Shown here in pieces: positions 40-5,618 of a stretch of DNA of 38,522 bases. The DNA is from Thermoplasmata archaeon (GTDB taxonomy: Archaea; Thermoplasmatota; Thermoplasmata; RBG-16-68-12; JAGMCJ01), in the NCBI GenBank assembly GCA_023130895.1, contig JAGMAI010000030.1, positions 1 through 38,522 on the forward strand. The letters are read 5' to 3'. The position numbers and the translations under genes were made by a program. Below the pieces are notes generated by a model. It saw only the letters and a program-made list of their open reading frames with translations. It was not told the DNA's origin and made no database searches. Positions within the stretch are counted from its first letter, which is position 1. The number at the start of each line of letters is the position of its first letter.

Positions 40-1326
40 TTATTGAGTTTTCGCCGTGATGACCTCCATCCCCTTCATGTAGGGCCTGAGGGCCTTCGGG
101 ACAGTGACGGACCCGTCCGCGGTCTGGTTGTTCTCGAGTATGGCGACGAGCGTTCTGGACGTCGCGAGAGCGGTGCTGTTGAGCGTGTGCAGGACCCGCT
201 TCTCCCCGCCCACCTTGCCGACTCGGATGCGCAACCGGCGGGCCTGATAGTCCGTGCAGTTGGAGCAGGAGACGACCTCGACGTATTTCTTCTGGCGGGG
301 CGACCAGGCCTCGATGTCGTACTTCTTGGCGGCGACCGTGCCGATGTCGCCCGTGCAGTCGTTCACGACGCGGTACGGTATCTCAAGCATCTGGTGCAGG
401 TCCTCGGCGTTCTTCAGCAGCTCCTCGTGGTACGTCCACGAGTCCTTGGGGGTGGAGAAGATGAACTGTTCGACTTTGTTGAACTGGTGCATGCGGAAGA
501 GACCGCGGGTGTCCACGCCGCGGGAGCCGATCTCCCGCCTGAAGTTGGTGCTGAACCCCGCGTACTTGAGCGGGAGCTTGTCCTCGTCAAGGATCTCGCC
601 CTGGTACATCGCCGCTATCGGGTGCTCCGACGTGGCGATGAGGTAGAGGTCCTCGCCCTCTATCTTGTACATGACGGACTCGAAGTCCTCGAGGTCGGTT
701 ACACCTTCGTAGGGCTCCCGCCTGATCATGAACGGCGGCTCGACCGGTGTGTATCCCCGCTCGATGAGCAGGTCGAGCGCGAAGTTGATGAGCGCCTGGT
801 CCATCTGCACTAGCGGCCCCATCATGTAGAGGAAGCCCGCGCCGGCGACCTTGCGGGCCCGCTCGAAGTCCGCCATGCCCAGCGATTCCAGCAGTTCGCC
901 GTGGCTCTTCGGTTCGAAGTCCTTCGCGGAGATATCGCCCCAATTGCTGACCTCGAGGTTGTCGCTGTCGTCCGCGCCGACGGGCACGGACTCGTGAAGG
1001 ATGTTGGGCAGCCGCATGAGGCCCTGCCTGACACTGGCTTCCAGCTCCTTCCGCTTGTCCTCCAGCTTCTCCAGCTCTTTCGGAAGCTCCGAGGCGCGCT
1101 GCAGCTCCGCGGAGGCGTCCTTGCCCTCCCTCTTCAGCTCCGAGATCCTCTTCGAGACGACATTCCTTTCGTGCTTGAGCTTGTTCGCCTCTTCGACGAC
1201 CTGCCTCCACTCCTTGTCCATGGAGATGACCTTCTCGAGAAGCTCCAACTTCTCCTCGTCTCTCCTCTTGGCCAGGTTGTCTCTGACTGCCCCAGGGTTC
1301 TCTCGGATCTGCTTGATGTCCAACAT
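40..1326 (-). CDS. serS: Seryl-tRNA synthetase
   Basis: N-terminal coiled-coil arm (MLDIKQIREN...), LIATSE, motif 2 FRRE..GLFRMHQFNKVE, EVVSCSNCTDYQARRL, HTLNSTALA. ATG at 1326 preferred over GTG at 1338 because a BRE/TATA-like AAAAAGCATTAAA on the minus strand near 1353-1365 implies a leaderless start. Confidence 0.97.
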   Translation of the reverse strand: MLDIKQIRENPGAVRDNLAKRRDEEKLELLEKVISMDKEWRQVVEEANKLKHERNVVSKRISELKREGKDASAELQRASELPKELEKLEDKRKELEASVRQGLMRLPNILHESVPVGADDSDNLEVSNWGDISAKDFEPKSHGELLESLGMADFERARKVAGAGFLYMMGPLVQMDQALINFALDLLIERGYTPVEPPFMIRREPYEGVTDLEDFESVMYKIEGEDLYLIATSEHPIAAMYQGEILDEDKLPLKYAGFSTNFRREIGSRGVDTRGLFRMHQFNKVEQFIFSTPKDSWTYHEELLKNAEDLHQMLEIPYRVVNDCTGDIGTVAAKKYDIEAWSPRQKKYVEVVSCSNCTDYQARRLRIRVGKVGGEKRVLHTLNSTALATSRTLVAILENNQTADGSVTVPKALRPYMKGMEVITAKTQ

Positions 1327-1389
1327 TCGGTTGACCACATGCGGGCGGTTGGTTTAATGCTTTTTGGCGAGTGGGGGGAGAGGCGGGCA

Positions 1390-1925
1390 CCGAAACGCTT
1401 ATCAATGACTTGCTGACGCCCGGGAACGGAGTTGAAACGGAGTGGGTACGGAGTGGGTACGGAGGGGAAACGGAGTGGGTCTATAGAACACTAGGAGAAC
1501 ACTTACAGGAAGATAGGAGCGACATTACAGAGAGTTAGGAGAGACATAGGAGAAAAACGACCGAAACGCTTAAGAGCACTTGTCAAGGCCTCCTAAGCAG
1601 AGCCGAAGCGGAGTGGGTGTGGAGGGGAAGTGGAGGAGAAGCGGAGGATCACTAGTGAGACATAGGAGAAACAGTGGAGAAGCACTGGAGGCAAAGGCTT
1701 AAGAGGGGTAGCAAGGGGGCTCGGAGCTCATTCTATCACGGAGACACAGCGAATAGCAAGGATCCTGCAAGGAATAGCAAGGGAGGAGCAAGGTTTCGGC
1801 AAGGAACCAGCAAGCGACCTGCAAGGATCTAGCAAGGATTCGGCAAGGATGTCCCTGGTATGTATATGGTAGGTCCCTAGGATGTCACAGGAAACCTAGG
1901 CGGGACCTTAGGATTTGCCTATGAT
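1390..1925 (+). repeat. Three arrays of degenerate 11-bp-period purine-rich units (NNGGAG / GCAAGG cores), each preceded by a BRE-TATA-like element
   Basis: ACGGAG at 1426,1437,1448,1459,1470, then TAGGAG/TTACAG at 1492,1503,1514,1525,1536,1547. Second array has units at 1597-1685 every 11 bp. GCAAG at 1756,1767,1777,1788,1799,1810,1821,1832,1843. CCGAAACGCTTA at 1390 and 1561; GCAAAGGCTTAAG at 1691. Confidence 0.9.
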
Positions 1926-2030
1926 TTGTCACGGGTGAACGGATTCAGCCTGCTCATGCGTATCGTTTCTGTCCCCCGCGGCAACCATTATAAGCCCGAA
2001 CGCAGCTTATCAAACAGGTCGTGGAGGAAG

Positions 2031-5000
2031 ATGAGGAAGTCCATCCTGATGGCACTTCTGGTTTTCATGTCAATGTTCACAGTGGTGATGATTCTTCCAG
2101 AGACAGCGAGGGCCACCACGCTCTTCGTAGGTGGGACGGGTCCGGGCAACTACACGACGATACAAGCGGCGATAGACGCCGCGGTCCCTGGGGATACGGT
2201 GTATGTCTACAATGAGACGTACTATGAGCATGTTGCCCTGAACAAGACCTTGTCGCTGGTCGGGGAGGACAGGAACGCGACAGTATTGGACGGGAGCGGG
2301 ACCGGCGTTCCCCTCAACGTAACCGCTGACTGGGTGAATGTGACAGGATTCAACTTCACGAACAGCGGAACTGATTGGGAGGACGCGGGTCTGGAACTCT
2401 ATTCCGCGCATAACTGCAATATTTCTCACAACATCTTCCAGGACTCCATGGAGCACATAGGTCTCCTGCTTTCTGACAACAACACGATCACGTACAACGA
2501 GGTCCTGGGCCCTTTCAACGGGATCGTAGTCTCCCAGTCCTCAGACAACACGATCGTGAGGAACACCGTCTACTCGAACGGCAACATAGGCATATACGTC
2601 CCGTGGGGAGACAGCAATACGATTTCGAATAACACAGTGGTCGGCAACGACGATGGAATCATGCTTGGTGGGTGGGCCAACCACACGCTCGTTGCCGGTA
2701 ACAACATCTCCTCAAACGGAAGGTACGGTCTCGCGCTGTGGGGCGCGAGTTACAGTACGGTCCACAACAACATCATGCTCCGAAATGGTTGGGGCACCTA
2801 CCGTTATGGGATATACCTCTGGGATGCGGAAAACAACACCATCTCTCACAATGAGGTTCATGAGAGCGCGTCCATCAACATCTACCTGAACTACTCCAAC
2901 AACAACACAGTGGAGGGTAACAACGTATCTGACAGCCACTATGGTGTGAACCTCCACAATTCGGACAGTAACAACGTAGTTCGCACGAAGGCCCTGGCAA
3001 ACTCCTATGCTGGCGTTTACATTTGGCGGCTGTCCAACCATAACATGATATCGGACAGTGAGATCTCCGGCAGTAGCTTCGGGGTTTACTTTGGTGGGGC
3101 CGACAACAACACCATCAGCGACTCCAGGACATCTAACAATGAGGCTGGCATCTATCTCGATGCTTCGGATTTCAGTCAGATACTGAATTGCACGGTCCTG
3201 AGCAACGGTGGCGGCATCAGCGTCCGCGAATCCTACAACACAACGATCAGGGAAAGCAATGTCTCACTCAGTGATAGCATGGGATTGTACGTGACATCCT
3301 CCAACAACACGCTCATCTCGAACAACACTGTTCTTCAGAACGGACACGATGGCATTGGCATATACTTCTCGGGGGACGGTGAGATTACGAACAACACACT
3401 CAGCTCCAACTGGGCGTCCGGGATTGGGCTGTCATACTCAGAGCGCGTGACGATACATGACAACGTGCTAGTTGATGACGGCATAGGCATCGGCGGGAAT
3501 AGACTTTCAGATTTCAATTCCCATGTCATCAGCACCACGAACGCTGCCAATGGCAAGCCGATTCGCTACTGGAAGAACGTCACAGGAGGCATCGTTCCAG
3601 CGGATGCAGGTCAAGTCATACTTGCGAACTGCACAGGTGTCCGCGTGGAAAACCAGAATATCAGTGACGCCGATTATGGTGTTCAGCTGGGTGTTTCCTC
3701 CGGGAACATTGTCCGCGCCAACAATGTCTCTTCCAACGACTGGTACGGCATAAGTCTCACTTACTCCTACGCGAATTCCGTCGAGAACAACACCGCAAAC
3801 GGCAATAGGCAAGGCCTGCGCTTGCACCATTCCAATGGGAATGCAGTCACCGGCAGCAACGCCTCTTGGAATAGCTGGGACGGGATTCATTTGTACGAAT
3901 CCGATGGCAATGCCCTCTCATCGAACAACTTCTCGTTCAATGATGTCGGGATAGATCTCTACTGGTCCAGCGCGGACATCCTTTCGGATAACGTGATGTT
4001 CGAGGACGGGATCCTCATCTGGGGAAGCTCGATAGAGCACTGGAACACGCATGACATTGACACCACCAACACTGTCAATGGGAACCCTGTCCATTACTGG
4101 AAGAACGCCACAGGAGGGTCAGTTCCGTCTGATGCTGGCGAGGTCATACTTGCCAACTGCTCCAATGTCAGCGTTGGTGGGCAGAACGTGAACAACGGGT
4201 CGGTGGGTATTCTGCTCGGCTTCTCGGCGAATAACGACATTGCAGGAAACACCGCATCATCCAACAAACTGTACGGCGTCCATATGTACCGCTCGGACCT
4301 TAACACGCTCAGCGACAACAACATCTCCTACAACCAATGGGGGATTCATCTCTATTCATCAGTTCAGAATACCATCGCCAGAAACGAGGTATACCGGAAT
4401 AAAATGGGAATGGGAATCCGAGCGGACTCCAACAACAACACAGTCGACCTCAACATAGTCTCGGAGAGTCAGCAATACGGTATCGGAACGAGCTATTCTC
4501 GGGACAACATCATTGTTGGCAATGACGTGTTGCGCAACCGCCAAGGCATATCGATTTCCATGTCGAGCGGCACAAGGGTCTACCACAACAACATCATCGA
4601 CAACACTTTCCAGGCGGGCGACAACACTGACTCAAATCAATGGGATGATGGCTATCCGTCTGGCGGAAATTACTGGAGTGATTACGCTGGAGTGGATGTG
4701 ATGAGCGGTCCCGATCAGGACCAGCCTGGTAGCGACGGAATCGGGGACACACCGTACAACGTGGATGCTGACACCCAAGATCGGTACCCCCTGATGGACC
4801 CCTTCGGAGTACCAAGGACGAGACCGCCGAAGGTCCTAGACGCGGTTCTGAGTGGAGCGGACTTTGAGAATGTCACGATCTCATGGGCGCTATCTCCCGA
4901 CGATGGTCTAGGTCTGAACTCTGTTGTCGGATACCATATACTCAGAAACACGACCTACGACCGTAGTGGTTTCGACTATCAGTTGATTTCCACCCTACCC

Positions 5001-5618
5001 AATGGAACCAATTCCTTCGTTGACACCTATGCCGGAGAGGGCGACCCCAATGATTACTTCTACATCATATGCGCGCTGGACTCGAACAACACGACCTCAT
5101 GCTCCGAGGATCAGGCGGGGAAGTTCACCCGCCCGTTGCTCACTGGTCCCAATCTAGTGTCCATACCTCTCGTCCAGTCGGACACGCGCGTGGAGAATGT
5201 CCTCCAGACCGCAACGTTCGACATGACCTGGACATACCGGCCCTACGATCCGAATGACAAGTGGAAGTACTATATGCCCTTCAAGCCGTACAAGGGGGAC
5301 CTGAGCTGGTTGAACCATACCCAGGGGTTCTGGATCAACGCGACCGAGGAATGCAATCTCACGGTGGCTGGACTGGTTCCGCTCAGGACAAGCATCCAGC
5401 TCTACAGCGGGTGGAATCTTGTCGGATTCCCCTCATTCGATGCCTCTTTCATGCTGTCAGACCTCCGGGCAAGCGTCGCAGTTGATCGAGCTGAGGCGTT
5501 TGACCCCTCGGCACCTCCACACTTCTTGAGAATCATGCAGGACTCCGACGAGTTCTCTGCGGGCGACGGCTATTGGGTCAAGGTGACGGGGGATACGCTC
5601 TGGATGGTAGATGTATGA
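2031..5618 (+). CDS. Secreted NosD/CASH-type right-handed parallel beta-helix repeat protein with an Fn3-like domain and a C-terminal GxNLV(S/G)xP..GYWV domain
   Basis: Signal peptide MRKSILMALLVF...ARA; GNYTTIQAAIDAA motif; many SNNNTI..N/GI.L repeats; GGNYWSDY..DGIGDTPY..DRYPL closure. ATG 2031 has GGAGG at 2023 and a TATA (CATTATAA) near 1986. Confidence 0.9.
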   Translation: MRKSILMALLVFMSMFTVVMILPETARATTLFVGGTGPGNYTTIQAAIDAAVPGDTVYVYNETYYEHVALNKTLSLVGEDRNATVLDGSGTGVPLNVTADWVNVTGFNFTNSGTDWEDAGLELYSAHNCNISHNIFQDSMEHIGLLLSDNNTITYNEVLGPFNGIVVSQSSDNTIVRNTVYSNGNIGIYVPWGDSNTISNNTVVGNDDGIMLGGWANHTLVAGNNISSNGRYGLALWGASYSTVHNNIMLRNGWGTYRYGIYLWDAENNTISHNEVHESASINIYLNYSNNNTVEGNNVSDSHYGVNLHNSDSNNVVRTKALANSYAGVYIWRLSNHNMISDSEISGSSFGVYFGGADNNTISDSRTSNNEAGIYLDASDFSQILNCTVLSNGGGISVRESYNTTIRESNVSLSDSMGLYVTSSNNTLISNNTVLQNGHDGIGIYFSGDGEITNNTLSSNWASGIGLSYSERVTIHDNVLVDDGIGIGGNRLSDFNSHVISTTNAANGKPIRYWKNVTGGIVPADAGQVILANCTGVRVENQNISDADYGVQLGVSSGNIVRANNVSSNDWYGISLTYSYANSVENNTANGNRQGLRLHHSNGNAVTGSNASWNSWDGIHLYESDGNALSSNNFSFNDVGIDLYWSSADILSDNVMFEDGILIWGSSIEHWNTHDIDTTNTVNGNPVHYWKNATGGSVPSDAGEVILANCSNVSVGGQNVNNGSVGILLGFSANNDIAGNTASSNKLYGVHMYRSDLNTLSDNNISYNQWGIHLYSSVQNTIARNEVYRNKMGMGIRADSNNNTVDLNIVSESQQYGIGTSYSRDNIIVGNDVLRNRQGISISMSSGTRVYHNNIIDNTFQAGDNTDSNQWDDGYPSGGNYWSDYAGVDVMSGPDQDQPGSDGIGDTPYNVDADTQDRYPLMDPFGVPRTRPPKVLDAVLSGADFENVTISWALSPDDGLGLNSVVGYHILRNTTYDRSGFDYQLISTLPNGTNSFVDTYAGEGDPNDYFYIICALDSNNTTSCSEDQAGKFTRPLLTGPNLVSIPLVQSDTRVENVLQTATFDMTWTYRPYDPNDKWKYYMPFKPYKGDLSWLNHTQGFWINATEECNLTVAGLVPLRTSIQLYSGWNLVGFPSFDASFMLSDLRASVAVDRAEAFDPSAPPHFLRIMQDSDEFSAGDGYWVKVTGDTLWMVDV

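Follow-up and report, generated by a model that had tools for sequence, protein, structure and literature searches.

What are the three arrays of 11-nt units that lie between the gene for seryl-tRNA synthetase (serS) and a gene for a NosD-like surface protein in this 38,522-nt contig of a Thermoplasmata archaeon, and what might such arrays do? An earlier note on this DNA had described them as promoter-led repeats of GGA-containing units and had offered two explanations, namely tandem sponge RNAs and helically phased DNA-binding sites. Here, "the window" refers to the whole 38,522-nt stretch, coordinates are positions within it unless a contig is named, and contig labels without a genome prefix belong to this genome (G000). 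When laid out in an 11-base register, the serS/NosD-like intergenic gap (1339-2030) contains three arrays, all on the plus strand, which we read in the same way as the note had. Array 1 (1426-1557) consists of 12 units of 11 nt, beginning with ACGGAGTGGGT and continuing with TAGGAGAACAC / TTACAGGAAGA, and its core drifts from ACGGAG to TAGGAG/TTACAG. Array 2 (1597-1695) has 9 units with GCGGAG or GTGGAG cores, while array 3 starts with 9 GCAAGG units (array 3a, 1756-1853), one of them 10 nt long (1767-1776), and continues as ~6.5 decaying units (array 3b, 1854-1925) that run CCCTGGTATGT, ATATGGTAGGT, CCCTAGGATGT, CACAGGAAACC, and onward, with CCCTGGTA and CCCTAGGA among the decaying units that reach 1925. 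Phase had been said to persist despite sequence divergence, which is true within the arrays, but not between them, where an offset of 6 separates arrays 1 and 2; a single 10-bp slip occurs within array 3 near 1767-1777.

A genus-wide family of non-coding 11-nt arrays

The 11-bp periodicity of 1426-1925 is real, and the sequence is non-coding. Self-identity at lag 11 is 0.60 in array 1, 0.63 in array 2, 0.57 in array 3, and 0.52 over the whole stretch, with array 1 reaching 0.62 at lag 22. None of 2000 mononucleotide shuffles of each array or of the whole stretch matched the observed value when the best value over lags 4-34 was taken for each shuffle. Tandem Repeats Finder calls periods 11, 22, and 33 in this region, and the list of open reading frames (ORFs) holds none longer than 55 aa across the arrays of the window. 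There are 35 GGA triplets in 1426-1925, a single phase holding 9 of 11 in array 1 and another phase 7 of 10 in array 2, and some units read GGAGG or GGAGGA. To check for an assembly artefact, Logan contigs were taken from three DNA runs, which belong to three studies, and these contigs tile the region. In run X1, pieces differing at 0-1 positions span 1313-1463, 1652-1745, 1755-1900, and 1904-2300, and run X2 has such a piece over 1340-1487. The Logan contigs are fragmented at the arrays and no single one spans all of them; the same block is also present in independent genomes of the genus at 87-96% identity.

These arrays are not confined to the serS locus. A genome-wide autocorrelation scan, which the earlier note had proposed, was run at every lag from 5 to 30 (2.06 Mb in 228 contigs, 83.7% complete) and revealed further 11-bp phased arrays at about 15 loci (C25, C26, C39, C42, C75 at the contig end, C120, C126, C149, C153, C172, C183, two on C200, C203, and C206). 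With a sliding window of 99 and a threshold of 0.52, lag 11 yielded 14 segments and lag 22 yielded 13, whereas all other lags that are not multiples of 3 yielded 0; multiples of 3 also give periodic segments, which are coding repeats. With a sliding window of 88 and a threshold of 0.5, lag 11 yielded 17 segments vs. 0-1 for ten control lags, and across thresholds of 0.47-0.52 the corresponding values were 14-18 and 0-4. Unit types recur from locus to locus, and so does even the sequence in which variant units follow one another, that of array 3b being seen again on C25, C26, C183, and C200. A set of 188 units, taken from 12 arrays, gives the consensus C-A-A/T-G-G-A with five further, free positions, the core G being 76% conserved; core variants are GGAG, CAAGG, TAGGA, and TATGG, while the spacer varies freely. 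A consistent strand bias was also apparent, as the sense strand of 13 arrays is 56-70% purine and carries 9-36 GGA vs. 0-7 TCC. The purine-rich strand has the sense of the gene that follows downstream.

The family extends through the genus. BLAST detected homologous arrays in 5 of the 7 other genomes of the genus and in none of 33 genomes from six other families of the order, while a pattern of five GGA at period 11 has 2-21 matches in 6 of 8 genus genomes; of 71 other genomes in the order, 6 have a single match. The reversed pattern also matches inside the genus, as expected because the units contain AGG, and is not an independent control. Synteny and conserved periodicity in relatives, both of which had been suggested as checks, were found as well: beside serS, arrays occupy the same place and direction in G003, G005, and G001. 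The three arrays of the window are thereby shown to be copies of a genus-wide family of non-coding 11-nt tandem arrays. Literature searches for an 11-nt repeat family in archaeal leaders, or for undecanucleotide or 11-mer repeats, found none describing this family (supplementary files excluded).

Arrays turn over much faster than their flanks. The serS genes of G003, G005, and G001 are 93-97% identical, whereas the adjacent arrays differ in unit count and order, and each of these three loci has only two arrays vs. the three found here. The serS-arrays-NosD arrangement is orthologous in G005:C61, and by our reading the gap is ~170 nt longer here than in G005, which matches the 171-bp spacing of two promoter-like 12-mers described below. 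Furthermore, a non-orthologous locus with unrelated flanks (G005:C57) matches 1388-1930 at 94% identity, and indels between copies amount to roughly one unit (-12 nt) or two units (+22 nt). It is shown by these copies that arrays gain and lose whole units and have been exchanged between loci. In an alignment of seven block copies, the mean pairwise difference per site of array 2 is 0.00-0.04 in the GGAG core and 0.07-0.36 at other positions, while in array 3 it is 0.000 in the CAAG core and 0.15-0.39 in the spacers. Within arrays, too, conservation is found in the cores (the same 188 units).

Promoter-like boxes, gene X, and a bacterial link

Arrays 1 and 2 had both been placed exactly 28 bp after a duplicated element resembling a B recognition element with a TATA box. 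The element is an exact 12-mer, CCGAAACGCTTA, at 1390-1401 and 1561-1572, extended by TCAATG in the first copy (1390-1407, plus strand) and by AGAGCA in the second (1561-1578, plus strand), and the two arrays are indeed equally spaced from it, but the gap is 24 nt in both cases. Scored with a matrix derived from the promoters of 27 tRNA genes in this genome (GAAAnnCTTAAATA, beginning at -37 to -43 in 24 of them), the copies reach 8.5 bits at 1392 and 9.1 bits at 1563 on the sense strand only. A promoter-like box also lies in the sense direction at C149:12094, and none of these three loci has an antisense box. A third such element had been noted before array 3; the sequence there, GGCAAAGGCTTAAGA (1692-1706, plus strand), differs from the 12-mer by reading at 4 of 12 positions, scores under the 8.5-bit threshold, and is rather a separate TATA-like box, of which homologous copies keep (G)TTTAAGA. 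In the region of the second 12-mer, homologous copies conserve CGAAAC and the downstream TGTCAAGG, but not the TATA-like middle. Judged from sequence, these boxes are putative promoters. A scan of the window for bacterial sigma-70 promoters and terminators is uninformative for an archaeon.

Arrays are found 5' of genes, 3' of genes, and between them. With direction taken as the purine-rich strand, they lie 5' of NosD-like genes on C153 and C126, of gcvH in G005:C63 and G001:C27, of an operon for a Ras-like GTPase and a 1389-aa secreted protein at four loci (G000:C203, G005:C89, G003:C296, and G001:C9), and of an aminotransferase gene in G001:C33. They lie 3' of a same-direction gene at atpD (C149), cbf5 (G005:C1), and a ChsH2-like gene (G000:C120), the last position being kept in the distant G004:C46 with different units, and further arrays are located between divergent and convergent genes. 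The family thus seems to include leaders, trailers, and stand-alone copies.

Arrays also lie 5' of five paralogues of a gene encoding a 186-aa protein, here called gene X, which are located at C25:755-1318 (minus), C200:1116-1676 (minus), C75:8269-8829 (minus), C42:1166-1729 (plus), and C172:2690-3250 (minus). Among full-length X genes with at least 450 nt upstream, lag 11 is the strongest upstream period in 16 of 16, from six genomes (0.61-0.78); two more genes are too near contig ends, and three partial X matches in G004 and G007 have no lag-11 upstream period. The tRNA-promoter matrix is too weak to place promoters at most loci, and therefore plain TATA-like hexamers were counted: one stands 63-121 nt before the array in 13 of the 16 genes, while none occurs between array and ATG in any of them (844 nt), which places the X arrays in the predicted 5' leader. 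The arrays extend to the ribosome-binding site, and in G003:C14 the last in-phase unit, CGGAGGTGATT, resembles by reading the gene's own ribosome-binding site.

Searches of protein X against Pfam, PHROGs, and NCBIfam returned no family, and the literature search (supplementary files excluded) found nothing on the X family or DUF6266. Its AlphaFold model (predicted local distance difference test score, 83) has a low-confidence N-terminal stretch of 24 residues, three helices, and a sandwich resembling immunoglobulin/fibronectin type III (Ig/FN3) domains. Residues 1-45 are basic, with a median net charge of +5, and those after them are acidic (median -5). Structure searches match the C-terminal Ig/FN3-like domain alone, as Foldseek returned TapA and CopC from the PDB at E ~1e-4, a wide VIA-align search returned generic beta-sandwiches at Z 8-9.6, and BFVD held nothing specific. 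A profile search of a 1.84-billion-protein library detected X in 3312 representative clusters at E<=0.001, and the nearest clusters in the Atlas are assigned to Bacteroidota. A search of 71 other genomes from the order did not find X, and 400 other genomes of the phylum gave one marginal match (E 2.3e-6) inside a 1323-aa ORF. In bacteria its distribution is patchy (8 of 301 genomes, and 1 of 151 in a second set, the order around G638). X was likely acquired horizontally. At one Bacteroidota locus (L094), X is located beside a true DUF6266 gene and a DUF5675 gene.

Bacterial X genes are also preceded by periodic elements. Using a threshold of at least 0.64 identity over 33 nt, a 10- or 11-nt periodic element is present in 8 of 18 upstream windows (195 nt) of bacterial X genes vs. 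4 of 274 control windows from the same loci. The sample is small (21 matches in 8 of 301 genomes), and G494:C82 (contig start), G489:C11 (weak partial match), and G499:C30 (same result as G494:C69) were excluded. The elements have 3-5 units with a conserved core, and in those read the sense strand is purine-rich; their cores are CGAAGGAT (four units), GCGGAG (three), TAGTGGAGGAT (four), GTGCGG, and AGGAAG, plus 10-nt ACGTAA units. The neighbours of bacterial X genes are mutually unrelated, and X alone travels with the arrays. One Ignavibacteriota metagenome-assembled genome carries four 11-nt AGGAAGnAGGT units at about -150 to -100 of X and, ~400-480 nt upstream of the same gene (L083:1550-1620), a TCTGAYC-like 7-nt array with a lag-7 identity of 0.64-0.69. 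At two further loci (L085:1305-1369 and L092:2175-2237, genome G499), an 11-nt array of CACCTTACACG type, pyrimidine-rich in the gene direction, lies between X and the next gene, which encodes 293-332 aa of no Pfam family, and this suggests that a second bacterial gene family is also preceded by 11-nt arrays.

Competing explanations for the arrays

Our leading interpretation, which we hold tentatively and with somewhat less than even confidence, is that the arrays are transcribed, unstructured, multivalent binding platforms. The RNA would correspond to the purine-rich strand and would start at promoter-like boxes of the arrays themselves or be made as part of 5' leaders; unstructured, it would show one core per 11 nt to a sequence-specific factor. 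The bound factor would set message stability or translation, and promoter-led stand-alone copies such as arrays 1 and 2 would compete for the same factor. Protein X is the sole candidate for this factor, owing to its co-inheritance with arrays across bacteria and archaea. An RNA-level role is favoured because of the leader position, the strand bias across unrelated cores, the sense-only promoter-like boxes, and the lack of structure in arrays 1 and 2, which fold at -12.1 and -17.2 kcal/mol (z-scores of +0.81 and -0.45 vs. shuffles) without repeated hairpins. The sponge RNA proposed in the earlier note is partly supported, by the purine-rich sense strand, the unstructured arrays 1 and 2, and the sense-only 12-mers, but membership of the CsrB/RsmZ group is not.

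Several points weigh against this interpretation. No RNA run matched 900-2900 of the window, and X20, a run labelled as possible RNA that is probably DNA, touches only 1716-1933. Promoter scores are modest (8.5-9.6 bits, with ~0.3 such matches expected by chance per kb per strand), and by reading 4 of 8 homologous copies do not preserve the second 12-mer's TATA-like part. Several arrays are located 3' of genes or between convergent genes and have no downstream target (C149, C39, C26, and C120). Structure searches recognised no nucleic-acid-binding fold in X, and since leader and gene are co-inherited, counts and orientations taken over X paralogues and close species lack independence. Out-of-register exchange could account for part of the conserved-core pattern between copies. 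Nothing in an RNA platform explains the exact 10-11-nt period, which equals the DNA helical repeat, and a single ancestral unit could simply have passed on both the precise spacing and the common period.

The closest described kind of sequence is the dispersed heptamers of Beggiatoaceae, cyanobacteria, and Bacteroidetes. Direct repeats of the heptamer TAACTGA are described, in the parts of that paper available to us, from marine Beggiatoaceae, cyanobacteria, and some Bacteroidetes, in arrays of 2 to tens of copies whose patchy spread suggests transfer and for which binding of a post-transcriptional regulator is proposed there as an untested idea (MacGregor 2015, PMC4679880). Like them, the present arrays have one unit length per genome, occupy many intergenic loci, run head-to-tail, and often lie just upstream of start codons. 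Unlike the heptamers as described there, they have an 11-nt unit with a degenerate core and a spacer rather than near-identical copies, an archaeal host, a single protein family linked to them across domains, up to ~45 units in 500 bp, and internal promoter-like boxes. Dispersed leader repeats are known from cyanobacteria and Beggiatoa, without an established binder or function, and what the present family adds as a handle is a fixed 11-nt unit, a constrained core, leader and stand-alone copies, positions conserved between species, and a link to X in both domains. If the arrays do bind X or another factor, they would represent a new module of post-transcriptional or transcriptional control, and if that factor is X, this would be the first function for a large uncharacterised protein family. 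The arrays may also help to explain the expression of the highly variable surface-protein genes of these sediment archaea.

An alternative that we consider unlikely, yet worth serious weighing, is that the arrays are helically phased operators or iterons, on which a protein bound once per helical turn would polymerise along one face of the duplex and activate, repress, or block the neighbouring gene's transcription. Such sites remain in play because 10- and 11-bp periods recur in bacterial relatives: archaeal arrays repeat every 11 bp, and at bacterial X loci the repeat is 10 or 11 bp, no other period there reaching the threshold (8 of 18). A conserved core with a free spacer is also the layout of iterons, and by reading the 3-5-unit arrays of G624:C11 and G624:C20 end ~10-12 bp before a TATAAT- or TATATA-like hexamer. 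Among known systems, parC of plasmid R1 consists of two sets of five near-identical 11-bp iterons that flank a promoter beside parM/parR, with one ParR dimer per repeat (PMC2241845, as far as the text available to us goes), and the window likewise has sets of 11-bp direct repeats with promoter-like boxes between them. Unlike parC as described in that text, the present family has 30-45 degenerate units per locus, ~15 chromosomal loci, predicted leaders, and no partition genes; no gene resembling ParM, ParA, or ParR was found among the neighbours of arrays scanned against Pfam. The centromere version of this idea, which the earlier note had entertained, finds no support, as the arrays of the window are flanked by serS and a NosD-like surface-protein gene with no partition genes there.

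Operators of the SARP (Streptomyces antibiotic regulatory protein) and OmpR-PhoB type offer a second precedent for the helically phased reading. In the text available to us, these are 7-bp direct repeats with a 4-bp spacer, in 11-bp and sometimes 10-bp units, 2-3 of which overlap the -35 box or lie upstream of it, with a winged-helix domain binding them (PMC5930380). The resemblance lies in the 10-11-bp units with core and free spacer, and the PimR heptamer given there, CGGCAAG, resembles the CGGCAAGG units of array 3. Against that reading, however, the archaeal X arrays lie downstream of the only TATA-like box and reach up to the ribosome-binding site, unlike the SARP operators of that text, and the 12-45 units of the arrays far exceed known operators. 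A purine-rich sense strand across unrelated cores has no DNA-level reason, and the OmpR/SARP winged helix Trans_reg_C (PF00486) gave 0 matches at E<=0.01 in this 84% complete genome. Matches to BTAD are weak (17.5-24.8 bits) and fall within long ORFs.

Less probable again, although the turnover described above speaks for it, is a neutral or selfish satellite, in which one 11-bp unit was multiplied by slippage and unequal exchange, spread by recombination, and tolerated. Here the relevant observations are the divergence of arrays beside 93-97% identical serS genes, the ~170-bp extra block, the 94% identity of 1388-1930 to a non-orthologous locus, the scatter of arrays 5', 3', and between convergent genes of unrelated function, the frequent contig breaks at arrays (C75 end, C206 start, and G002:C131 start), and the higher-order periods of 22 and 33, which are typical of unequal exchange. 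Neutral decay would affect all positions alike, whereas the cores are far more conserved than the spacers both within arrays and between copies. In addition, G000:C120 and the distant G004:C46 have their arrays at the same position, bacterial X homologues come with arrays of this kind, and the strand bias is consistent in 13 arrays. Such a satellite would recall the dispersed heptamers of cyanobacteria and Beggiatoaceae or the tandem repeats of Borgs. The Borg repeats of Methanoperedens, suggested to be regulatory RNAs, offer an archaeal comparison; they are described as perfect, locus-unique, and of many unit lengths in the text available to us (PMC9879509). Both kinds are fast-evolving, include many intergenic copies, and are biased toward purines (A), but unlike the Borg repeats as described there, the present family has a single unit length, degenerate units, and members shared across loci and species.

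A more specific proposal seems improbable to us, namely that X and its 11-nt array constitute a transferable module: the basic N-terminal arm of X would bind a single unit of its own leader, as RNA or DNA, X would thereby coat and control the message that encodes it, the module would have moved from Bacteroidota-like bacteria, and arrays would then have multiplied before NosD-like and other genes, with stand-alone arrays as decoys. If true, such a self-control module would amount to a Csr-like titration network independent of CsrA and shared by two domains.

A sponge for ribosomes or a CsrA-type protein, in which GGA/GGAG units mimic Shine-Dalgarno or CsrA sites and titrate the 30S subunit or a CsrA-like protein, appears very improbable. 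The 35 GGA in 500 nt, the GGAGG and GGAGGA units, and the CGGAGGTGATT unit of G003:C14, which looks like a ribosome-binding site, would fit such a sponge. However, strong sites for the tail of 16S ribosomal RNA (duplex <= -6 kcal/mol) are not enriched, as each array has 1-6; composition-matched shuffles equalled or exceeded the site count in at least 81 of 100 cases for 8 of the 12 arrays, and in no fewer than 21 of 100 for any array. The genome has no assembled 16S, and therefore a generic anti-Shine-Dalgarno tail motif was used, which may not be the host's own. CsrA (PF02599) gave 0 matches at E<=1 (genome 83.7% complete). Like CsrB, RsmY, and RsmZ, the arrays, if transcribed, would present many GGA on one RNA, in leaders and promoter-led stand-alone copies; unlike them, the GGA are outside hairpin loops and strictly spaced at 11 nt, there is no Rfam match over threshold (RsmY scored 11.1 bits vs. 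a gathering score of 57, E 5.8), and many family members are mRNA leaders or trailers rather than free-standing small RNA genes.

Coding repeats, whether 11-residue protein repeats (33 nt, three units) or a frame-shifting phase-variation tract, are scarcely credible. GCAAGG-type arrays do lack stops in their sense frames, and an ATG-led ORF of 124-125 aa runs through those on C25 and C183, but the window's arrays carry no ORF above 55 aa, the period is 11 rather than 33, by our reading TAG or TGA occurs in the majority of unit types (with TAGGAG and TATAGGATGA units placing stops in the frames), indels of ~11-12 and 22 nt would shift the frame, and the C25 array ORF matches no Pfam family. These GCAAGG-type arrays (C25:1266-1640 and C183:13838-14215, both minus) follow a ~70-nt conserved head with a good TATA box, GGAACC, and the ATG that opens this frame through the array; the frame is probably an accident of stop-free units, and a translated leader peptide is possible.

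Flanking genes and copies of the array-3 module

To the left of the arrays, serS (40-1338, minus strand) is divergent from them, with a probable start at ATG 1326 and Pfam matches to Seryl_tRNA_N (1.4e-25) and tRNA-synt_2b (6.5e-44). To the right, a secreted NosD/right-handed beta-helix protein (2031-5618, plus strand; NosD, 1.3e-95; Beta_helix, 2.9e-74) is encoded in the same direction as the arrays, and its signal-peptide-like N-terminus points to a start at ATG 2031. Upstream of this ATG are an AT-rich box, ATTATAAG (1988-1995), and a GGAGG located 6 nt before it, and the leader also has a CCGAACGCAGCTTATCAA element resembling the 12-mer, all three of which are kept in G005:C61. Since the gene has this conserved box, CCGAACGCAGCTTATCAA, and GGAGG of its own, it may be transcribed independently of the arrays.

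The array-3 module has a conserved non-repeat head (1716-1755, plus strand, GGGCTCGGAGCTCATTCTATCACGGAGACACAGCGAATA) that is alignable in 6 copies, and a sharp, conserved 3' end (1910-1934, plus strand, AGGATTTGCCTATGATTTGTCACGG), with copies losing homology abruptly at ...GATTTGCCTATGATTTGTC. A 9-bp direct repeat, TTGTCAAGG at 1580-1588 and TTGTCACGG at 1926-1934 (8 of 9 identical), brackets array 2 and the array-3 module, and the serS-adjacent arrays of G003 are bracketed by the same ATTTGTCA(A/C)GGG pair; a target duplication and a recombination site are candidate readings of this repeat. The copy of the module on C39 begins at the head (1716). This copy (G000:C39:446-1955) is truncated, 98% identical to 1716-1933 of the window, and abuts two genes, one encoding 133 aa of no family and the other (1254-1955, minus) a member of the phage integrase family. 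At the orthologous site in G005:C1, cbf5 is present instead, and an element may have integrated at the C39 array or next to it.

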